Below, piece after piece: positions 24,414-34,723 of a stretch of DNA of 64,000 nucleotides. The position numbers and the translations under genes are program-made. How positions within the stretch are numbered: the first letter of the stretch is position 1; each line of letters begins with the position of its first letter. This DNA comes from Candidatus Poribacteria bacterium (GTDB taxonomy: Bacteria > Poribacteria > WGA-4E > PCPOR2b): contig OZ244587.1 of assembly GCA_965218095.1 (NCBI GenBank), positions 160,001 through 224,000 on the forward strand, read 5' to 3'. Under the pieces are notes generated by a model. The model was not told the origin of the DNA, ran no database searches, and saw only the letters and a program-made list of their open reading frames with translations.

Positions 24414-25043
24414 TCATTCCTCTGGCGTTCCCGCCCAGAGTGCACCCCGTTGCAAAAGTATCGGGAACTTCTCATGTCGGCAGGCTTTGGGGTCGTGTCC
24501 CAAGGCGAGATAGAACACGCGACCCTTCCCCCAACTTTTCGTCCATGCCACAGGCACCGCAGCTCCTTGCCACAGCGCAGAGGCAAGCACATGCACACGC
24601 GGATCGTAGTCGAGGATATACTGCTCATCAGTTACCATAAATTCGTCGAGCCCTTCCGTGATTGGATGTTCTGTATCCACGATGCTGACTTGATAATCCC
24701 GATAGCGCGGATGGGTGACGAAATATCCACCAACCATTGCTCGGTACTCTGGACACCCCCTGAACGAGTCGGTTGCGGAGTGAACTCCGACATAACCCTT
24801 GCCCGAAGCGATGTGGTTCAGCAGGCCATTCTTCTGTGCATCCGTGATTTCTCCAATAGTGTAGTAAAAAACAATCAGATCATAGGGGTCAAGATTGGGG
24901 GCAATCAACGCATCAAGGTCTTCTTCGACTTTGGTGATTTCAAACTGGTCTCGTTGCGAGAGTGCGTCAATAATCACTTCGCTGCACCCTTTCCAATCGT
25001 GCACCGCCCCGCCAGCAAATACCAGAGTATTGATTTTTCCCAT
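24414..25043 (-). CDS. ThuA-like domain protein
   Basis: G.GYVGVHSA.D, GG.F..HP, DEQY, W.K.WGKGRVFY.ALGH. Confidence 0.88.
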   Translation of the reverse strand: MGKINTLVFAGGAVHDWKGCSEVIIDALSQRDQFEITKVEEDLDALIAPNLDPYDLIVFYYTIGEITDAQKNGLLNHIASGKGYVGVHSATDSFRGCPEYRAMVGGYFVTHPRYRDYQVSIVDTEHPITEGLDEFMVTDEQYILDYDPRVHVLASALWQGAAVPVAWTKSWGKGRVFYLALGHDPKACRHEKFPILLQRGALWAGTPEE

Positions 25044-25284
25044 TGCACTTCCTCCTTTATAATGTTAACAACGACTGACCTTTCGCATAATACGGAAGTA
25101 AGTTTTTTTAATTTCGGAATATGAACCCGCACATAGAGCGGATCCGATGATCGACCGTTTCGATTACAAAACCGGGGCGAGCCCGTGATGCATTAATCGA
25201 TCGAATCAGGATGCCGGGGCCCCTTGCTACAACTGGATCGAAAAATCAAAAAAACTTGCCGAAAATAATGCGAAAGGTCAGACC

Positions 25285-25373
25285 AAGTTCAGGTTGCAAA
25301 CCAAGCGATTCGTAAATCCGCCCATCACGGTCACTGAATTCGACTTCAAACGTTTCACCAAAGGATTCATCAT
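25285..25373 (-). pseudogene. DUF4926-like remnant
   Basis: Manual minus-strand translation ..ETFEVEFSDRDGRIYESLGLQPE..; no intact start. Confidence 0.45.
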
Positions 25374-25622
25374 CTTTATGTTTTACTCAATATGACTTCT
25401 GAGACATTTTTATTTAGAAACGGTATGATATTCCCCTTTTGGTAAGGTAAGAACGATGATGGGATTATAATATCATAAGTCTGCGGAAAACACAAGCCAA
25501 CATTCAAAGGAAATAGAAAGTTCCGATGAGAAACCCCGATCGAAGATCGGGGTTCGGCGACGAATTTGACCGCAAATTGACGCGGTGCAATCAACCTTCC
25601 GAAGGTTGTTTTGACCCATTTT

Positions 25623-26040
25623 CTATGCGAGGGAAATTTCTATCAAGGTCTTTGAATCGGTCAGGTTGCCATTGCTGACGCTCACGGTAATGGTACATTC
25701 ACCGGTTTGACCGGTATCCGGGGTGGAGGTGAACACTCCGGCACCCGCATTCAGAATTGAATTGGACGTTAATATCGAAAAAGGTGTCGTTGTCCATGCC
25801 GCTCGGCGGGCTAAGGATGTTTGCCGTATGGATAACGGCATCGACATTAGCGACCAGTTTTGAAGATAGTTCCTGATCACGGAGGTCGCCATCGACGAGC
25901 TTAACCTCAAAGCCGTTGAGTTTGAACTGTTTCGGATCATCGGGAATCACAAGGGCTTTGACAGCGTAGCCGCGGTCGAGCAACTGTTGGGTGAGATTGG
26001 CGCCGAGCCGCCCCGTTGCACCTGTGACGAGAATTTTCAT
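25623..26040 (-). pseudogene. Truncated NAD-dependent epimerase/dehydratase joined to an Ig-like domain fragment
   Basis: MKILVTGATGRLG...DINV then abrupt switch to GVFTSTP..GQTG..TITVSVSNG..TDS; YxxxK motif absent. Confidence 0.7.
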
Positions 26041-26140
26041 AGTGCCTACCTTGTTTCCGAAGTCTGATGTCCGACTTGGCGTTCAAAAGTTCCAAAGTTC
26101 AGGGGTACAAACGAACTAATGAACATCTGAACCCATTTCC

Positions 26141-27037
26141 TCATTCGTTTTTGAGGTTCACGAAAATTAGGGCGAAAATCGTCGCAACCACACCAATCAT
26201 CGACTTCCGGTCCAGCCGCTCGCCAAGCAGCAAAACCCCAATCACCATGGTAAACAACACGGTCCCTGAACCTGAAACCGGGAAAGCAATCAGGGCGTCA
26301 ATCCGGTCTAGCGCGTTCAGAAACGCCCAACTGCCGGCCATGTTGCAGACACCGAGGAGAGCGCCGTAGAAAGTCTCCCATCGCGTCGGTGCGATCTTAT
26401 GATAGAAGGAGGCGCCGGCGTAAGCGATTGCGGTTGCGCCGAAGAGAAAGAGCAGATACATCGGCTTCTGGTCAATTGGACACATTTCGTTGAACGCTTT
26501 CATTGTCAGCCGCGAGACGCTAGAGTTGATAAAGAGGAGCATCACAACGAATAAACCTAACCCTCCACCTGCTGTCCCGACTTCCCTCCTTCCTTTCTTC
26601 CATTCCTTTCTTTCATGCCTTCCAGTCTCCTTTTCCTGTTTCGTGCCAAGGAGTGGCAGCGCACAACACGCGAGTGTGATACCAACCGCCTGCCAAACGT
26701 TAGGGATTTCACCCCAGAACAAGATCGCGAACACAATGGGTACCACGAGCGACAAACGCACAACGGCAATTGTCACGATGATTCCGCTTAAACGCATACC
26801 GAGTATGACCAGCCCCAGTCCGGTAGAGTAAGCGATACCATTTGTCAAACCGAAGGCAAAAGTCAGTTCGGTGAATTCAAAGCTACCCACTTGAGCCGCT
26901 GACCATACGCTCATCAGAAACGCGATTAGATAGTTCACAAAGCCGATTGGCGTAAGGCGATGTCCACGATTTTGGGCGTGCTTCAGGATAAGCCCAAACC
27001 CGGAGATTAGTACAATATGCAGGATGAGGAACAGCAT
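26141..27037 (-). CDS. EamA/DMT family transporter
   Basis: About 10 TM helices in two repeats, each with GE.(P/L); purine-rich insert in the central loop. Confidence 0.85.
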   Translation of the reverse strand: MLFLILHIVLISGFGLILKHAQNRGHRLTPIGFVNYLIAFLMSVWSAAQVGSFEFTELTFAFGLTNGIAYSTGLGLVILGMRLSGIIVTIAVVRLSLVVPIVFAILFWGEIPNVWQAVGITLACCALPLLGTKQEKETGRHERKEWKKGRREVGTAGGGLGLFVVMLLFINSSVSRLTMKAFNEMCPIDQKPMYLLFLFGATAIAYAGASFYHKIAPTRWETFYGALLGVCNMAGSWAFLNALDRIDALIAFPVSGSGTVLFTMVIGVLLLGERLDRKSMIGVVATIFALIFVNLKNE

Positions 27038-28020
27038 TATCCCTCCTGCATCGGCAAGACGACCTTGATCTTCTTTTTTGCTGAGCGGTAAGTTGCTAGG
27101 ACAACCTCAACGGCATGGCGTCCGGCCCTGCCATCAACCAAGGGTGTTGTACCGTCACGGATACAATCGACGAAATGGGTCAATTCGCCGGCGACGCCAT
27201 GGGGCACGGTGCGATCGGGGGTGAGCGCCTTCCACTCCGATTCGCCGAATTTTTTGAGGTGCGCGACGTCGGCTCCCATATCGAGCCGAAGCGAGCCTTT
27301 CGATCCGTCAATGATGGTGTCGTTTGTGCCGCGTGCGCCCATGAATCCGCCCCAACGCAATATACCAACTGCGCCGGCATCGTACCGAATTAGTGAGATG
27401 GTGTAGTCTTCCCAATCGTCATGTCCAGAAAAACTGCCCACTTCTGCTGCAACCGTCACGGCCGTTCCACCAAACCAGTTGATGAGATCGGACTTGTGGA
27501 TGCCATTCTCAAGAAGACCACCGACGCTACCGTACCAGGTTGACGGACGTTTACGCGGCCCGCGATAGGTGCCGCTGTAATCCGTTTCGATATAGACCAC
27601 ATCCCCAATTTCGCCATCATCAACCAACTGCTTGCCGAGAACATGCACCGGATAGAAACGGAGGACTTGACCAACCATCAGATGTGTACGCGCCTTGTCC
27701 GCCGCCTCAATCATCGCGTCGGCATCAGCGAGGGTGAGAGAGAGTGGCTTTTCACAAAAAGTATGGACACCCGCCGCCGCCGCCGCAACGATCACCTCCC
27801 GATGTGCCACAGGCGGCGTTGCGACCACGACCCCATCCACAATTTCTAGCAGTTCGCGGTAATCCTGAAACGCACGGATCTGATGCTGTTTGGCGACAGC
27901 CTGCGCTGCCTCAAGTCGAATATCCGCGACACCGACAAATCCACAATTTTCAACCTTGGGCAGCGAATTGCAATGGGCGCTGCCCATGCCTCCTGTACCG
28001 ATAACGCCAATGCGTGTCAT
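27037..28020 (-). CDS. Gfo/Idh/MocA family oxidoreductase
   Basis: IG.GGMG, CEKP, GG.L.NGIH..D. Confidence 0.92.
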   Translation of the reverse strand: MTRIGVIGTGGMGSAHCNSLPKVENCGFVGVADIRLEAAQAVAKQHQIRAFQDYRELLEIVDGVVVATPPVAHREVIVAAAAAGVHTFCEKPLSLTLADADAMIEAADKARTHLMVGQVLRFYPVHVLGKQLVDDGEIGDVVYIETDYSGTYRGPRKRPSTWYGSVGGLLENGIHKSDLINWFGGTAVTVAAEVGSFSGHDDWEDYTISLIRYDAGAVGILRWGGFMGARGTNDTIIDGSKGSLRLDMGADVAHLKKFGESEWKALTPDRTVPHGVAGELTHFVDCIRDGTTPLVDGRAGRHAVEVVLATYRSAKKKIKVVLPMQEG

Positions 28021-28033
28021 GCTTTTCTCCTAA

Positions 28034-29344
28034 TCAGACGCTGGTACGCCCCTCTTTTTGCAGAATATCTCCTGCGATCGCGTATGTCATTCCGTGCATA
28101 GCAATAACTACCAGTCCAAGGCCCGCCGCCAGATAGCCACCCATATAGAGGTTCGGGATATTGACCACCTCGGCGTTATGCGGGTGCGTCGCTACCTGGT
28201 GCAATTGAAAGCGGTAATTATCATATTTTTCCACCAGTTTCAATGGCTCAAACCCTGCAAACAGGGAATAGTCCACAATACCGCCAATCTCCAGGATAAC
28301 ATGCTCGGCATCGATTATCTTTGTCCCTCCTTGGCCATCCACTGTTACCAAACCCCTAGACTGACCCTCCTCAATCTTGCAGACGTGGGTTCGATACAGC
28401 GTCTGAAAACGCGGGTCTCGACTCTCCATGATCTCCGCAAGGCGGGCGTAATAAGGCAGCCCGTAGCGGTTATCGCTGATTAACCGCCAATGTCCATCAA
28501 ACGGCTGACGCATCACATAGTAGACCTGTTTGCCCGCATCGTAAAGTTCCGTCGCCGCCCAATCCGCGGATCGGCCGCCACCGACAACGACTACCCGCTC
28601 GCCGAAGAAATCCTCCGGTCGATCGTAGCTTTTCACTACAAACGGGAGATCTTCTCCAGGGACGTCAAGCCGCCGGAGGATGCACCGCTGTCCCACAGCG
28701 TAAACCAGGTATGTGCAAGTATACTGATGGATTGTCTCCGTCCCGACATCCTTGCTCGTGACCAGGAAGCCGCGTTCATGCAGCTCAATCCGTATCACCT
28801 TCTCGTAGGTATCGATGCGGTCGGTTTGTGCAAATCGGGCGGGAATGGTGTGATAGTAATGCAGCAGGTCGCCCTTGATGATCAGATCATTGACATTTAA
28901 GTCAATTTCCTGTTCTTCGACATGTTGCGCCAGCGGATAGAATGCAAATTCCATCCACTGCCCCGGGGAAAGAGTCAAGAGATTCTGTGGCACATTGTTC
29001 CACAGCCCGCCGACCTCTTCTTGGGTAATGAGCAAGTAATCTATCGGCTCTGCCTGCCGAAATTCGACTGCAATCTGCGCAAGTTCCTCAAACAACTGTC
29101 GCGGATGATGGAGCAGTCGGAAGAGATCCACTGGTGGGATGCCGTTTCTGGACAACGCCTTAAAATCCAACCCTAGAAGGGGCCCTTTGATGCGCGTTAG
29201 CTCCTCGGCCAACTGTGGGTAGCGCAGGCTGAACATACGGCTCCTGCGATAGTAGGGATGCCAGCCCCCCAACACGACGGCAAGCGCAAGTCCGGCGGGT
29301 CCCCCGCCCACGATAATTACGGTATAATGTTCTATATGCTGCAA
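28034..29344 (-). CDS. FAD/NAD(P)-dependent oxidoreductase resembling eukaryotic OSGIN1/2
   Basis: GGGPAG and GGGRSAD dinucleotide motifs; L.GW.PY, LF..L.HP and GG.W......LT.S.G.WME motifs recalled from OSGIN proteins. Confidence 0.7.
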   Translation of the reverse strand: MQHIEHYTVIIVGGGPAGLALAVVLGGWHPYYRRSRMFSLRYPQLAEELTRIKGPLLGLDFKALSRNGIPPVDLFRLLHHPRQLFEELAQIAVEFRQAEPIDYLLITQEEVGGLWNNVPQNLLTLSPGQWMEFAFYPLAQHVEEQEIDLNVNDLIIKGDLLHYYHTIPARFAQTDRIDTYEKVIRIELHERGFLVTSKDVGTETIHQYTCTYLVYAVGQRCILRRLDVPGEDLPFVVKSYDRPEDFFGERVVVVGGGRSADWAATELYDAGKQVYYVMRQPFDGHWRLISDNRYGLPYYARLAEIMESRDPRFQTLYRTHVCKIEEGQSRGLVTVDGQGGTKIIDAEHVILEIGGIVDYSLFAGFEPLKLVEKYDNYRFQLHQVATHPHNAEVVNIPNLYMGGYLAAGLGLVVIAMHGMTYAIAGDILQKEGRTSV

Positions 29345-29454
29345 TCACTCACCTCTAAGAACATCTGAGCTCCCACTGGTGCTTCCGGGTCATCTTCGTT
29401 AAATATCGAATCATCGTATCAACCAACTTATCCGGGTGGCCATCGTCTCCTTTT

Positions 29455-30354
29455 TTATTTTCTCACGTCTGCACATAAGACCTGATTAGCCAGCCCCAAC
29501 TGACCCGCAAGATCATTGATGAATTGACAGGCGACACGCCCCGATCGCCCACTCGATGAGGCTTCCCACTCCAACGCTCTGCGATGTAGCTCCTCTATCG
29601 GGACGGACAAACCACGCTTTTTCGCATAATGAGAGACGATCTGTAGATAGGTTGCTTGAGAGATTCGGTAGAAGGCAAGGCGCAGTCCAAATCGATCACT
29701 GAGTGAAACCTTCTCTTCGGTTGTCTCACGCGGATACAACTCGTCCTCATCACTCTGAGGATACTGATTTTCGCCGATTTGGCGCGGCATCAAGTGACGG
29801 CGATTTGATGTGGCGTAGATGAGAGTGTTATCAGGACGCGCAGCAATTCCACCCTCAAGCATCGCTTTCAGTTCTCTGTATTCGGCTTCCCCCTCACTGA
29901 AGGAGAGGTCATCGCAAAAGAGGATATACCGTTCGGGGCGTTCCCAAAGCAGGCCCGCAATCTCTTGAAGGTGAAGAAGCCCCTCTTTGCTTACCTCGAT
30001 TAGCCGCAAACCCTCCGGCGCATATCGATGGAGTATACCTTTGATGAGCGATGATTTGCCCGTGCCGCGATCGCCCCACAATAAAATATGGTTCGCCGGC
30101 AAACCACGTAGAAACTGCCGCGTATTCCGATCTAATTCGTCAATTTGCCGGTCAACCCCGATCAGGTCCGCGATGTCTACAAGGTCAGGGTGTCTGACGG
30201 GAATTAAACGTTGATTCCGCCACCGAAAGGCAATATGTCCATTGAGTTGTTCGAGAGGGCTGTCGATAGCGGCGACTATTTGTGTCAATAGTGCTTCCGC
30301 TTTGTCGAGCAGTTGTTCTACGCGAGGAATAATCGCTTTCCAATCTTGTGTCAT
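29455..30354 (-). CDS. DUF815 family AAA+ ATPase
   Basis: LWGDRGTGKSS, FCDDLSF, YATSNRRHL, SLSDRFGL, RSGR.A; likely start MTQDWK (ORF track extends to 30435). Confidence 0.9.
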   Translation of the reverse strand: MTQDWKAIIPRVEQLLDKAEALLTQIVAAIDSPLEQLNGHIAFRWRNQRLIPVRHPDLVDIADLIGVDRQIDELDRNTRQFLRGLPANHILLWGDRGTGKSSLIKGILHRYAPEGLRLIEVSKEGLLHLQEIAGLLWERPERYILFCDDLSFSEGEAEYRELKAMLEGGIAARPDNTLIYATSNRRHLMPRQIGENQYPQSDEDELYPRETTEEKVSLSDRFGLRLAFYRISQATYLQIVSHYAKKRGLSVPIEELHRRALEWEASSSGRSGRVACQFINDLAGQLGLANQVLCADVRK

Positions 30355-30412
30355 ATCGCTGATAATTCGAGTCTCTTTTCTGAGACGCCCCATACTTGCG
30401 ATCGTACAAAGT

Positions 30413-30870
30413 CTAGGGGTTTGCCGGATTGACAACGGTTAATCCTTCAGCGGCAGCTACGTTGCATAGATTGGTATCCGCACAAATGAAGGAATCAAGG
30501 ACTTGCTGTCCTCGAAGACCAGCGTCACGGCAAGCTGGATCGCATCCAGTGTTCGGAGGTTGCTTACCGTTGCGTGAGTCGAGAGTAGCAGTTCTGCTTC
30601 CTGAAAATGATACGTGAGAATGGGAATGACCTAGTATACACCACTTGCAACATCTGTAAGAACTTGACTGCAAACCAAATGGAAATCCGGGGTTGAAAGG
30701 TTCTCCATGCGAACTTTTTTGGCAAACACAGATCGAAGTTCAACGACACCCAACCGTGAGATGAAATGAATTGCATCCGGTTCAGCAAGGATTGCATCAA
30801 CTTGTGCCATACCAACTTCAACATAATAGTGCTTGGCAATAGTACTCGTATCTCAATAATGATAGGTCAT
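30413..30870 (-). pseudogene. VapC-like PIN-domain toxin, two stops and a frameshift
   Basis: MTYHY*DTSTIAKHY..E...VY*V..LRTLDAIQLA / FICAD..L...AAAEGL.V.NP. Confidence 0.8.
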
Positions 30871-30872
30871 CC

Positions 30873-31166
30873 TCACTCTCCACGTTCTGCAATAATTTCT
30901 GCACTTTGCAATAATTTCTGCACTTAATGAGCCGCCGGACTTCGCTAAGATCTTTTGCACTCTTTCGAGAGAAATGGAATCATCCGCCTGACTCCGGGCG
31001 TACTCAAGGAATTCCTTATCGACTAAATCGTCCGTTTTTTTTCAAATCGGGCAGTCACCTCTGCCTCAAGCATACGGAGTTTATCCTCATCGAGTTGGTC
31101 TAATGTCGCAAGTAGGGTGTCAAAAGAGATTTGAACATTTATTGGATCGGTTCGTTCCGTTTTCAT
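30873..31166 (-). pseudogene. Putative antitoxin, frameshifted
   Basis: Small ORF directly upstream of the PIN gene; C-terminal SLE.V..IL.K..GSLSAEIIAERGE; frameshift at a T-run near 31035 and a 19-bp duplication. Confidence 0.55.
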
Positions 31167-31320
31167 CGAAGGTTTCCTTTCATTCAGTGTGAAGTTTGAA
31201 AAGATTTTATCAGAAACTGAAATTGAATGCAAGGTTATTGAGACAAAACAAAAAAGCCCCGCTGATTGAGCAGGACTCGTATTATGCAGATCTTCACTCA
31301 GGAATGCCTAATTCACTCAG

Positions 31321-33357
31321 TCAAATGTCCAACTCGCCACACTTTTTCTCCTTGCGAAAGATCAAGATGAACTGATGCAACTGGTTGGAAACGTAGGCAT
31401 ACGGATAGCCGAAGGGATACAATTTCAGCGACTTATCGTACCAGATCTTGTAGCCGCGAAACCGCAGGTTTTCCACGTCAGCGAGCGCGTTGACAACATC
31501 AGCGTGAATCATATTGTGGTGGGTCTCCATCGGCTGGAGGTCTTTGCAGAAAATCACGACGTACCCTTTCGGTTTGAGGAAACCCATCACCGCTTGGACT
31601 ACCTCCCTCAACGATGCGTAAAATTGAGCGGGTGGCATGTTCCCCAAATCTTCTGTGTCTTCTGTGAAGGGAGTTGCACTGTCATCGCCTGTCTTCTTCT
31701 TTCGTTCGCCGGTACGTTTTCGAGAGAGCATGTCACCATAAGGCGGATCAGTCAGGATTAGATTAAACGGTTTTTCGTCCTTCAAAATCTTCGCTAAGTT
31801 CCGCGCATCGCCGCAAAAGACCGGTTGCGGTTCGAGGTTAAGTTCAGCCGATGCCTGATGATAAAGATCCAAGTACTCCTGCGAGAGGTCGATGCCGCCC
31901 CCCTGTCGTCCTGTCATTGCACACGCCAATAGCGTGCCGCCGACTCCGACAAACGGATCCAGGACTCGCTCGCTTTTCTTCGTAAAAAACTCAATCAGAC
32001 GTTTCATCAGTTGGGGCGGCTTGGGTGATGGATGGCCCTTGCGAATATGGTGAGCGTAAGATTCGGAGCCACTGGTCGGATAGTGGGTATCCCAAACAGG
32101 GGCAAGCGCAACTGCCCACTCCTCCTCAGGCAGATCATTGAGTTTGCCGACGTTGTGCTCCTCACCTTCCAGTTCTACTGAATTGAGGAAGTATGTCCAT
32201 TCCCCCCCGCTAAGATTATTGAGTTTATTTCGCGGGTCATAACGCCTTCGAGGTATCGCTTTCGATTTGGACTTTTTGGGAGGCGTCATAACCTTGACAT
32301 GGAACAGCAATTCATCGACATCGTTGCTTGATGCGGAATTGTCTCCACGAGAGTTGCTTTTGAACCGTCGATAATCAATGGGAGAATCGAGGTGGGGTTC
32401 GCCCCGAAGCGAAAGGATAGACATAATTTCATCTTGAGACAGGATGCCCTCGTTGTTGTAACTCACCAGGATGTACTTCGCGTCTGCTTTTTCGATCAGA
32501 TCCTGAAATGCTTCCAGACAGTCCACTTTGGAGCAATACGCCGATTTTTCCGTCTCGTCATAATCACGCAGTCCCGTTTTTCCGTGGATTTGGGGATTAT
32601 CATAACGGGCAATTGTTTCCAGCAGGTGATAGTTGGTAATGTATTGGCGGGTGTTGTACGGCGGGTCAATGTACAGCACGTCGCACGCAATTTCCTCAAT
32701 CAGGTCGTTGGCGTCCCGGCGGAAGACTTGATGCGGCAGATCCGATGGGATAATCTCCGTCGGCACAAGGATCAGGTCGTTGTAAGTCCGGGGGTCCCAA
32801 CCCTTGAGATAAGCCCCGTAGGTTCCTGAGATATTGGCAATCTTCGATGTCGCCTCTAGCAGTGGTAACAGCAGTAGACAAAATTCATTCTCGGTGATGT
32901 CACCGTCATCACGCCACTTTTGGATTTGTTGGCGGGTAGCGTCAATCTTCTGACCGTTGAGATCAGACAGATACTGCCGACCATATTCATTATTCCCCGA
33001 TGGACAGTAGGTGCGAAAGATAAATCCTTTTTTACCCGGCAGGCAATTCAACCACGCGATCACCTTGTGGTAAGGTGAAAGACTGGTGAAGAGGCTATCG
33101 CTCGGCACGTCACCAAGCGTCGGGGCAATTCGGGCGAATACAGGTTCTTCGTTGTTTGCGACTAACGCTCGCTGAAATGTGTGAGAGAGTTCGAGGAGAT
33201 CGTTGGAAATAATCTGAAACCCTCGTCGTTTGAAATGTGCGGCGACACTTGCTGTTCCGGCGAAAAGATCGCAAAAAATTCTGTTTTGAATTCCCAGATC
33301 TGCAACGACCTTTTCAATATGAGATAACAGGTTCAATTTACAGCCGATATAACGCAT
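31321..33357 (-). CDS. Fusion of two DNA amino-methyltransferases (M.NlaIII-like D12 domain plus second N4/N6 domain)
   Basis: Domain 1: MRYIGCK, DLFAGT, YIDPPYN.RQY, VSYNNEG; domain 2: HPSPKP, LDPFVGVG, LTDPPY; continuous ORF. Confidence 0.88.
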   Translation of the reverse strand: MRYIGCKLNLLSHIEKVVADLGIQNRIFCDLFAGTASVAAHFKRRGFQIISNDLLELSHTFQRALVANNEEPVFARIAPTLGDVPSDSLFTSLSPYHKVIAWLNCLPGKKGFIFRTYCPSGNNEYGRQYLSDLNGQKIDATRQQIQKWRDDGDITENEFCLLLLPLLEATSKIANISGTYGAYLKGWDPRTYNDLILVPTEIIPSDLPHQVFRRDANDLIEEIACDVLYIDPPYNTRQYITNYHLLETIARYDNPQIHGKTGLRDYDETEKSAYCSKVDCLEAFQDLIEKADAKYILVSYNNEGILSQDEIMSILSLRGEPHLDSPIDYRRFKSNSRGDNSASSNDVDELLFHVKVMTPPKKSKSKAIPRRRYDPRNKLNNLSGGEWTYFLNSVELEGEEHNVGKLNDLPEEEWAVALAPVWDTHYPTSGSESYAHHIRKGHPSPKPPQLMKRLIEFFTKKSERVLDPFVGVGGTLLACAMTGRQGGGIDLSQEYLDLYHQASAELNLEPQPVFCGDARNLAKILKDEKPFNLILTDPPYGDMLSRKRTGERKKKTGDDSATPFTEDTEDLGNMPPAQFYASLREVVQAVMGFLKPKGYVVIFCKDLQPMETHHNMIHADVVNALADVENLRFRGYKIWYDKSLKLYPFGYPYAYVSNQLHQFILIFRKEKKCGELDI

Positions 33358-33403
33358 AATTTTCCTGTGTTGAGCAGATTCCCAAGGGTGATGCAACCGC
33401 TGA

Positions 33404-34723
33404 TCACCCTGTGTGTGCAATCTGTTCAAACGCTTGACGCATTAACTGCAATCCCGCTTTCGCTTCCGATTCAGCGATTACCAACGGCGGCGAAATCCGC
33501 AATACATTCCCCGCTAAGTACCCCATCAGGTGCAGCCCCTGTCGATAGCACTGGAAAACGCATTCGTTCGCAATTTTGTTCGCCGATTTGCCAGCGTAGC
33601 TATCGACTTCCAGTCCCCATACTAGTCCTTCGCCACGTACATAAGTTGCAAATTCAAAATCATCCGTGAGTCGATAAAGCCCCTCCTCAATCACCTTGCT
33701 GACCTGACGGCAATTCTCGATGATCGGAAATTTCTCAAACGTATCCAGTGCAGCGAGAATGGCGGCACATGCACGCGGGGCACCGCTGTATGAGTCGTGG
33801 GCTTCGCCACAGTCTAGCGAATCGAGGATTTCGGCTCTGCCTACGACCGCTGTCACCGGTTCACCGTTGCCGAGCCCTTTTCCCAACACGACCAGGTCTG
33901 GATGGAGTTCGTAGGTCTGGAAGGCGTACATATTTCCGGTGCGTCCGTTGCAAGATTGGACTTCGTCGAGAATGAAGGTGACGCCGTTTTGATTGCACCA
34001 GTCGTTAAGCTGGCGGAGGTACGATTCCGGTGGGTGGAAAGACCCTTTTGCGCCGAGATACGGCTCGGTGATCAGCATACAGATCTGATTAGGATACTCA
34101 CGCTTCAGGGCATCCAACTCTGCCGCGACTTTCGGCATTAGCACCTCTGGCGACCACGCGGGGTTACTGGTGTGTCGTTTGTCCATAACCATCGGAAACG
34201 AGAGCCACCGCACATTTGGATTCGCGCTTTTCTCGTCCGTGACATCTCCCGCTAGCCCCTCTTGTCCGTGGAAGCCGGGCCGGGTCGCAAGGATAATATG
34301 CTTATCAGGCTGATAGCGTTGCGCCGCCCACATCGCCTTGATGACGCTAGCAGCACCGGAATCTGCCCATAAGACACGCTGCATCTTTTCAATACCCAAA
34401 TTGGCAATGAGCCTCTGGGCGGCCCGTACTTCCAATTCAGTCAGGGCGTTATAGGCAGTTCGTGGGAGATCTTCGATATGGTGTCGGTATTGGTCTTCAA
34501 AGTACGGGTGGTTGTGCCCAAGATTAGCGACCAAAACGCCTGAGGTGAAATCGATGAATCGCCCATCCTCCGAATTCCAAAGATAGACGCCCTGCGCCCA
34601 TCGGATGACCAGTTGTGTTGGGGTGTAAGTTTTATGCCCTTTCGCAATTAGTCTGGCTGCTAACCTTCGGTGATCATCGGATCGGAATTCTTCTTCAAGC
34701 TGGATGGGTGAAGGTATTGTCAT
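33404..34723 (-). CDS. Class III PLP-dependent aminotransferase
   Basis: DF.SG....NLGH, ILDEVQS..GRTG, PDLV.LGKGLGNG. Confidence 0.92.
   Translation of the reverse strand: MTIPSPIQLEEEFRSDDHRRLAARLIAKGHKTYTPTQLVIRWAQGVYLWNSEDGRFIDFTSGVLVANLGHNHPYFEDQYRHHIEDLPRTAYNALTELEVRAAQRLIANLGIEKMQRVLWADSGAASVIKAMWAAQRYQPDKHIILATRPGFHGQEGLAGDVTDEKSANPNVRWLSFPMVMDKRHTSNPAWSPEVLMPKVAAELDALKREYPNQICMLITEPYLGAKGSFHPPESYLRQLNDWCNQNGVTFILDEVQSCNGRTGNMYAFQTYELHPDLVVLGKGLGNGEPVTAVVGRAEILDSLDCGEAHDSYSGAPRACAAILAALDTFEKFPIIENCRQVSKVIEEGLYRLTDDFEFATYVRGEGLVWGLEVDSYAGKSANKIANECVFQCYRQGLHLMGYLAGNVLRISPPLVIAESEAKAGLQLMRQAFEQIAHTG

Follow-up and report, generated by a model that had tools for sequence, protein, structure and literature searches.

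A bacterial flavoprotein family with specific affinity to the eukaryotic OSGIN1/2 proteins at a Candidatus Poribacteria locus

OSGIN1 and OSGIN2 are stress-induced flavoproteins that control cytokinesis, and we know of no physiological substrate for either of them. The locus described here raises the question of whether bacteria possess a relative of this family, and whether the genes around it can tell what such an enzyme acts upon. It lies in a stretch of 64,000 nucleotides from a Candidatus Poribacteria bacterium (contig OZ244587.1, positions 160,001 to 224,000 of the forward strand), which as a whole is called the window below, and its central gene encodes a flavoprotein that an initial annotation had taken as OSGIN1/2-like and as a member of a small-molecule operon. 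Our results indicate that this flavoprotein belongs to a bacterial clade, labelled BF herein, which very probably stands as sister to the eukaryotic OSGIN1/2 proteins, and that the gene neighbourhood does not identify its substrate. In the excerpts at hand of a 2025 review (PMC11940746), Osgin genes are said to seem confined to Eukarya, with no prokaryotic orthologs identified in databases, and 81 bacterial InterPro entries of the 'OKL38 family' are mentioned; the best-ranked matches from the longer lists of our literature searches held no paper on a bacterial OSGIN relative.

The gene and those of its parts on which the argument depends are as follows.

28034-29344, minus strand: open reading frame (ORF) of the flavoprotein, 436 aa from a TTG start, an FAD/NAD(P)H flavoprotein of the BF clade with a YpdA-type fold.
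29350-29355, minus strand: Shine-Dalgarno-like GAGGTG, 5 nt upstream of the TTG start, read directly.
29291-29308, minus strand: FAD-binding GxGxxG motif (GGGPAG, residues 13-18), with G13, G14, G15, P16 and G18 unchanged in all 24 aligned family members and the motif confirmed by regular expression.
29045-29266, minus strand: OSGIN-type insert, residues 27-100, which follows the FAD helix and precedes strand beta-2; GWHPYY and LFRLLHHP are part of it, and YpdA lacks it.
28949-28975, minus strand: TLSPGQWME motif, residues 124-132, common to OSGINs and aligned with the FFST segment of YpdA.
28565-28582, minus strand: second dinucleotide motif GGGRSA, residues 255-260, for NAD(P)H, aligned with the NADPH-domain motif of YpdA.

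In an alignment of 24 BF sequences the homologues begin at the same residue as the TTG start, and this start with its GAGGTG site is a better call than that of the public prediction P0001. The latter, of 400 aa and 100% identical at 92% query coverage, differs in the region 29236-29344 (minus strand) and appears to begin at Met37, so that the FAD-binding GGGPAG is left out of the public call. With the TTG start the protein opens directly with the Rossmann motif and carries no leader. Both dinucleotide motifs are invariant among the 24 BF members and so is R279 downstream of GGGRSA, while Cys210 is kept in 23 of them; a CxxC motif occurs in none of the 24, and the class B flavin-containing monooxygenase (FMO) motif FxGxxxHxxx[YF] in none of the 24 BF and none of 18 OSGIN-like sequences. 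Pfam Pyr_redox_3 matches the protein at 3.3e-25. The AlphaFold2 model (pLDDT 81.3, pTM 0.83) shows two Rossmann-type domains, in which the insert takes the form of short helices and a hairpin at lower confidence (pLDDT 54-90). The motifs on which the initial annotation had relied, namely GGGPAG, LGGWHPY, LFRLLHHP and GGLWNNVPQNLLTLSPGQWME, are all present in the translation of 28034-29344.

The family is not limited to this genome, where the gene is single-copy on one contig of 6.35 Mb. A homolog search gave 689 matches among the candidates scored, the best 120 of which are all at least 59% identical, and 138 loci were found among representative prokaryotic genomes. Among 80 of these, loci labelled Candidatus Poribacteria are 81-83% identical to the window protein, and those from metagenome-assembled genomes (MAGs) labelled Latescibacterota, Gemmatimonadota or Handelsmanbacteria 61-77%. 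Of 151 phylum genomes sampled for co-occurrence counts, 24 have the flavoprotein; one family has it in 20 of 25, in addition to the genome of the window, and another family in 0 of 100. Judged from their sequences, the BF proteins are a well-defined and tightly conserved bacterial clade. A subset of them (P0082, P0090, P0102, P0107, P0114 and P0120) has an additional loop in the FAD domain (alignment columns 224-248), about 25 residues long, with many Pro, Asp and Arg and set between two strands, which the window protein does not have.

The relation to the OSGINs is seen at first in the ranking of a profile search. A family profile built from the 24 BF sequences was searched against 1.84 billion representative proteins and found 1737 of them at E<=0.001 and 25 at E<=1e-30. 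Past BF itself and fragments, the first full-length matches are OSGIN1/2-like (2.6e-28 to about 1e-17, the first animal ones at 1e-28 to 1e-22), 400-660 aa in length and aligned over profile positions of about 3-430. Among 30 profile matches looked up, six clusters are named OSGIN1/2 (mantis shrimp, bedbug, bichir, tick, barnacle and priapulid), four more are eukaryotic by organism (nematode, sponge, Euglena and Prymnesium), one is bacterial (Spongorhabdus), one is called 'thioredoxin reductase', two 'hypothetical protein', and 16 are unnamed. The YpdA proteins of about 330 aa come later, at about 1e-15 and over positions 155-365 only; these are true YpdAs, since all 13 aligned ones match TIGR04018 and P0220 scores 442.9 bits against a cut-off of 339.9. 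Moreover, BLASTP aligns the window protein with a fish OSGIN1-like protein at 22% identity (E 4e-17, residues 9-436 against 17-483) and end to end with a bedbug OSGIN-like protein at 25% (E 3e-26), and the hhalign comparison of BF with OSGIN extends over 427 columns at 22% identity (E 9e-46). As a lead only, the feature search of the ESM Atlas lists OSGIN1 clusters from rank 3 on (0.98), right after two bacterial clusters.

The insert and the motifs around it make this affinity more specific. Insert against insert, BF and OSGIN match in hhalign over 67 columns (P 3.9e-6, probability 87%), and the BF insert compared with the whole OSGIN alignment lands at the same place (P 3e-5), whereas against YpdA no match is obtained with hhalign (P 0.23). 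The pattern S-x-x-x-W-[MLI]-[ED] is present in 24 of 24 BF, 16 of 18 OSGIN-like and 1 of 13 YpdA sequences, and GGxW after strand beta-2 is common to the BF and OSGIN-like alignments. The 18 retrieved OSGIN-like proteins have the consensus LAGxWPYY, LFDxLxxP and GGxWQ...LTLSLGxWME, with which the animal motifs given in the initial annotation agree in outline.

In the tree with a YpdA outgroup (70 rows), BF forms a clade with a support of 100 and is sister to all OSGIN-like sequences. In the maximum-likelihood (ML) tree with a thioredoxin reductase (TrxR) outgroup, calculated from core columns only (51 rows, 328 columns), BF joins BI plus OSGIN with an SH-aLRT (Shimodaira-Hasegawa-like approximate likelihood ratio test) support of 87, where BI+OSGIN and BF each have 99. 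Here BI stands for a rare clade of three proteins (P0137, P0151 and P0155) next to the eukaryotic OSGINs; its homolog search gave 5 proteins only, and none was found in the metagenome scan. BF lies outside all eukaryotic sequences and is not nested in the eukaryotic OSGIN clade, so it does not count as OSGIN1/2 in the strict sense of orthology. Altogether, the proposed OSGIN affinity is supported by the profile ranking, the end-to-end alignments, the common insert, the TLSxGxWME motif and the ML tree, and the alternative grouping with ordinary YpdA, TrxB or FMO proteins without any affinity to OSGIN was looked for and not found.

Compared with OSGIN1/2 and OSGN-1 of Caenorhabditis elegans, the window protein is thus collinear from end to end, with the two Rossmann motifs, an insert of about 75 residues after the FAD helix, the W-P-Y and L-F..L..P motifs inside it, and GGxW and TLSxGxWME behind it; both lack CxxC and the classical FMO motif. 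It differs from them in being shorter (436 aa against about 480-550 aa) and without the eukaryotic extensions, in its low identity of 22-25%, in belonging to a separate, bacterial clade on a long stem, and in an invariant Gln-Arg pair after the ATG-type strand, where the OSGINs are variable.

What such a protein might catalyse can be approached from its eukaryotic relatives. OSGN-1 and OSGIN1 are reported to bind FAD and to oxidise methimazole with NADPH (PMC10945809), and the same FAD binding and NADPH-dependent methimazole oxidation are reported for OSGIN2 (bioRxiv 10.64898/2026.09.08.750123); in the excerpts at hand of these two sources, OSGIN1/OSGIN2 (OKL38) and OSGN-1 are described as FAD/NADPH monooxygenases that regulate RhoA in cytokinesis. 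This cytokinesis/RhoA role is not applicable to the bacterial protein. It is most likely a cytoplasmic flavoenzyme that would hold FAD at GGGPAG and take electrons from NAD(P)H at GGGRSA. As there is no redox-active cysteine pair, the reaction with the substrate must fall to the reduced flavin itself, and the activity of OSGN-1, OSGIN1 and OSGIN2 favours oxygenation through a flavin hydroperoxide, with direct disulfide reduction in the manner of YpdA as the main rival. By analogy, FAD reduced by NADPH would react with O2 and oxygenate a small soft-nucleophile substrate, probably a sulfur-containing one, and the protein would probably act on its own in redox metabolism or detoxification, without being part of the local 'operon' as a pathway. 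To this explanation as a whole, a BF protein that is sister to the OSGINs and acts as a stand-alone NADPH/FAD oxygenase on a small soft nucleophile, we would give roughly even chances, while the oxygenase chemistry taken by itself is a more tentative proposal that falls somewhat short of even.

Several results weigh against this explanation and have to be set beside the evidence above. In an approximately unbiased (AU) test on the core columns, a clade of BF with YpdA was not rejected (p 0.356, delta lnL 2.2), and because this grouping is left standing the core phylogeny alone does not settle the placement. The hhalign comparison of BF with YpdA is strong (E 5e-42, 297 columns, 29% identity), covering BF residues 99-433 only, and in this core the protein is at least as similar to YpdA (29%) as to OSGIN (22%). 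A plain hidden Markov model of the insert, run against 183 retrieved proteins, gave 11.7 bits for its best OSGIN, which is not significant at library scale. The Gln-Arg pair is invariant in BF and variable in OSGINs, so the two pockets may differ; moreover, as the FMO motif is absent, oxygenase chemistry is not guaranteed by the sequence. Accordingly, as no phylogenetic test is decisive, the case for OSGIN affinity consists of the insert, the motifs, the order of the profile scores and an ML branch of moderate support. The specific affinity to OSGIN stands, and a placement that excludes YpdA is less certain, the core being as close to YpdA and the AU test allowing BF+YpdA.

Other names from the same superfamily were tried and dropped for the flavoprotein. 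Class B FMO, ArsO and the SidA/PvdA N-hydroxylases share the two dinucleotide-binding domains and give weak matches: PF00743 scores 16.8 bits against 22, with the FMO motif absent from all 24 members as said above, the SidA/IucD/PvdA family (Lys_Orn_oxgnase, PF13434) 15.6 bits against 21.3, and ArsO 29.6 bits against 425. Low-Mr thioredoxin reductase has the same fold class, and some sources name BF members 'thioredoxin reductase'; the TIGR01292 score is 26.8 bits against 343.45 with no CxxC, the genome has its own TrxR elsewhere, and TrxRs form an outgroup in the tree. The names TrxR, FMO and SidA were dropped because all of them fall below the curated cut-offs.

The explanation that survives best among the rivals takes the protein as a YpdA/Bdr-like reductase, dependent on NADPH and independent of cysteine, in which the reduced FAD would directly reduce a disulfide of low molecular weight, not bacillithiol disulfide but one such as cystine or a disulfide of the Cys-Gly or glutathione type. 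It speaks for this view that YpdA/Bdr (TIGR04018; PDB 7a76, 7a7b, 7apr) is the nearest solved fold, and an enzyme with FAD and NADPH and without a redox-active cysteine pair. In fact, the best solved neighbour of the AlphaFold2 model in Foldseek is YpdA/Bdr 7a76 (E 5e-22, TM-score 0.82 per target), followed after further YpdA/Bdr chains by TrxR, ferredoxin-NADP reductase, SidA and a putative FMO, and no OSGIN turned up among the solved chains; in the sequence comparison, too, 7a76 and 7a7b come first among solved relatives, over residues 152-412 only. The flavoprotein shares with YpdA a fold of two Rossmann domains without CxxC. To the core likeness and the AU result already given may be added that BF is nearer to YpdA in the core than the OSGINs are, that the genome has no true YpdA and the flavoprotein is its best TIGR04018 match at 67.7 bits, and that YpdA itself reduces its disulfide without an active-site cysteine, as the excerpts at hand of bioRxiv 10.1101/2020.12.02.408641 report. 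Enzymes of gamma-glutamyl and Cys-Gly breakdown also stand near the gene in two neighbourhood types: in 5 loci a gamma-glutamyltransferase (GGT) is immediately upstream, and in 13 an M19 dipeptidase is close by.

The differences concern the parts that would shape the reaction. Tested as a member of the YpdA equivalog, the window protein scores 76.1 bits with TIGR04018 against the cut-off of 339.9, and alignments of YpdA to it begin only at residues 99-156. It has the OSGIN-type insert and a GGGPAG without Cys in the GxGxxG motif. In Bacillus cereus YpdA, as far as the excerpted text of the same preprint goes, the Tyr of ATGYY together with a Phe gates a channel lying on the flavin's re-face; in the HMMER alignment the position of this Tyr is taken in BF by the invariant Q219-R220, and the FFST segment aligns with the TLSP of TLSPGQWME, where the mapping of the flavin-stacking Phe is approximate, by alignment. 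Because of these two replacements the pocket is of the OSGIN/BF type and not of the YpdA type. Moreover, the closest characterised relatives that bear the insert act as monooxygenases in vitro, according to the excerpts at hand of PMC10945809. The GGT and M19 neighbours may hint at thiol-peptide metabolism as a weak lead; both families have 4-10 copies each per genome in the three genomes checked, and since both are multi-copy the adjacency is weak evidence. We consider the YpdA-like reductase unlikely on balance, at about one chance in four, and clearly the most serious of the alternatives.

The second rival concerns the neighbours of the gene, which in the window are as follows.

27037-28020, minus strand: Gfo/Idh/MocA NAD(P)-dependent oxidoreductase (GFO), Pfam GFO_IDH_MocA 3.7e-27.
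26141-27037, minus strand: EamA/DMT-family membrane transporter, Pfam EamA 1.2e-11.
25699-26040, minus strand: N-terminal stub of a short-chain dehydrogenase/reductase (SDR)/epimerase, 113 aa, a pseudogene remnant, Pfam Epimerase 1.9e-12 over profile positions 1-94 of 240 only.

The GFO protein lies below every NCBIfam cut-off. The linkage reported in the initial annotation is real according to the ORF list and Pfam: the GFO gene follows 3' (downstream) of the flavoprotein gene after a gap of 13 bp (28021-28033), GFO and EamA overlap by 1 bp with base 27037 common to both, and the epimerase gene, 100 bp from EamA, is truncated. Its frame reaches a stop after residues of no relation to the family, and the next 650 bp or so contain no long ORF, which means truncation and not merely a frameshift. 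A scan for promoters and terminators over 24900-30600 gave counts not above those of shuffled sequences (7 against 4.7±2.3; 8 against 5.9±2.4).

From such an arrangement one might take the flavoprotein as the tailoring enzyme of a small-molecule pathway, for a sugar or aminosugar, in a flavoprotein-GFO-EamA-epimerase operon whose neighbours would point to the substrate. The short gap and the overlap argue for co-transcription in the window's genome. The neighbourhoods were compared by tblastn of the window neighbours against 80 of the 138 loci, which all context counts cover, by Pfam on 91 neighbour ORFs from 18 loci, and by a further tblastn of 19 neighbour proteins, the ORF calls of L034, L041, L071 and L081 being partly uninformative. 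A GFO ortholog (85-89% identity) is found downstream in 18 of the 80 loci, where it follows directly, and all 18 belong to the 19 loci with a flavoprotein identity of 81% or more. In three of the four neighbourhood types, some GFO-family gene lies no more than about three genes away. However, tblastn finds EamA at none of the 80 related loci and the SDR/epimerase stub at none either, and the SDR gene is a truncated remnant in the window itself. The GFO ortholog occurs in 138 of the 151 genomes of the phylum against 24 for the flavoprotein, including 99 of the 100 in the family that has no flavoprotein and altogether 115 of the 127 sampled genomes without it, and in G056, G066 and G143 the two genes are on different contigs. 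Moreover, the GFO_IDH_MocA NAD-binding domain has 130 matches in the window's 6.35-Mb genome, and where the other neighbourhood types have GFO genes, these are separate paralogs with 26-36% identity. Co-occurrence with GFO was accordingly rejected as evidence of coupling on account of these counts.

The neighbourhoods of the family fall into four lineage-specific types, and no partner is universal.

Poribacteria-labelled type: BNR and HhH-GPD genes upstream and a sulfatase after GFO, 17 loci each.
Second type: a divergent class-III aminotransferase (16 loci), an enolase-superfamily gene (18), a short GFO-like gene (17) and the M19 dipeptidase nearby (13).
Third type: PhyH dioxygenases (7 loci), another GFO paralog (10) and an extracytoplasmic function (ECF) sigma factor (9).
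Fourth type: GGT upstream (5 loci) and an amidohydrolase downstream (3).

GFO is thus a widely conserved gene of the phylum and not a dedicated partner of the flavoprotein, and the window arrangement is a local, recent juxtaposition of this widely conserved gene with a genome-specific transporter and a dead gene. The suggestion that the operon could serve as a guide to the substrate is not sustained by these counts, the arrangement not being conserved, and we regard the tailoring-enzyme explanation as improbable.

The weakest explanation, which had also been raised at the outset, is that of a eukaryote-like protein taken from the host, by which a sponge symbiont would interfere with OSGIN/RhoA signalling. 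The phylum is known for symbionts of sponges that have eukaryote-like proteins, the genomes closest to this one bear the label Candidatus Poribacteria and the protein does resemble OSGIN, but BF branches outside the eukaryotic OSGIN-like sequences and not among them, which makes a recent acquisition from the host unlikely, the identity to OSGINs is only 22-25%, the protein starts at the Rossmann strand without a leader, it is conserved at about 60-83% across Latescibacterota, Gemmatimonadota and Handelsmanbacteria MAGs that include groundwater and lake records by title, and the largest family sampled from the phylum did not yield it in any of 100 genomes, so that this explanation is very improbable indeed.

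Returning to the OSGIN-sister explanation, it is of interest to place it between the two better known families. OSGIN and YpdA match each other in hhalign as well (E 3e-41, 296 columns, 19% identity), and the three profile-profile matches together mean that BF, OSGIN and YpdA are mutually related. The OSGIN-YpdA link itself has already been published (Ong et al. 2004 and a CDD assignment, both as cited in the excerpts at hand of PMC11940746); what is new is a well-defined bacterial family with the OSGIN-specific insert and motif on a YpdA fold. In this respect the BF clade links the OSGINs in evolutionary terms to a bacterial thiol-disulfide reductase. It is conceivable, though we hold it as a speculation somewhat below the balance, that the OSGIN family began in bacteria and not in eukaryotes, with the insert and the TLSxGxWME pocket arising on the scaffold of a YpdA-type disulfide reductase and BF as the sister lineage that survived in bacteria. 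In that case OSGIN1/2 may have as their native activity a flavin chemistry centred on thiols and disulfides, derived from YpdA, and not that of a generic FMO, and a conserved, soluble bacterial enzyme would offer a practical route to the structure and the substrate of OSGIN, BF being a simple protein for work of both kinds.

Besides these results, several minor observations were made around the locus and its relatives. Past the SDR stub, the stretch of about 650 bp without a long ORF reaches to a ThuA gene, and another frame there (25044-25760, minus strand) reads an Ig-like-looking tail (…TITVSVSNGNLTDSKTLIEISLA); the region has the look of a scar left by a deletion or rearrangement. On the other side, upstream of the flavoprotein gene (29455-33429, minus strand), are a DUF815 AAA-ATPase gene (5e-101) and an ORF of 702 aa, a putative DNA methyltransferase judged from its translation alone. 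Close relatives have the BNR and HhH-GPD genes in place of these two, which suggests an insertion or rearrangement in the window's genome. The number of GFO_IDH_MocA matches in this genome (G000) represents in itself a very large expansion of that oxidoreductase family.

Among the related loci, one Poribacteria MAG has in GFO's place downstream an ORF of 1863 aa with a duplicated UvrA-type architecture (L016:4448-10039, plus strand). In the second neighbourhood type, at loci titled Latescibacterota or Gemmatimonadota, a conserved protein of 520 aa without a Pfam match (L024:2549-4111, minus strand, and its orthologs in 18 loci) lies between the class-III aminotransferase and an aldo/keto reductase.

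Finally, the thioredoxin reductase of the window's genome (L083:1396-2637, minus strand, corresponding to G000:C1 about 6073909-6075150) is a fusion of 413 aa with glutaredoxin-3 at its N-terminus, in which the glutaredoxin occupies residues 1-82 and the TrxR residues 105-402. Most relatives in the phylum have an unfused TrxR of about 320-330 aa, and long open TrxR frames of 420 and 448 aa are seen in G014 and G011, respectively.

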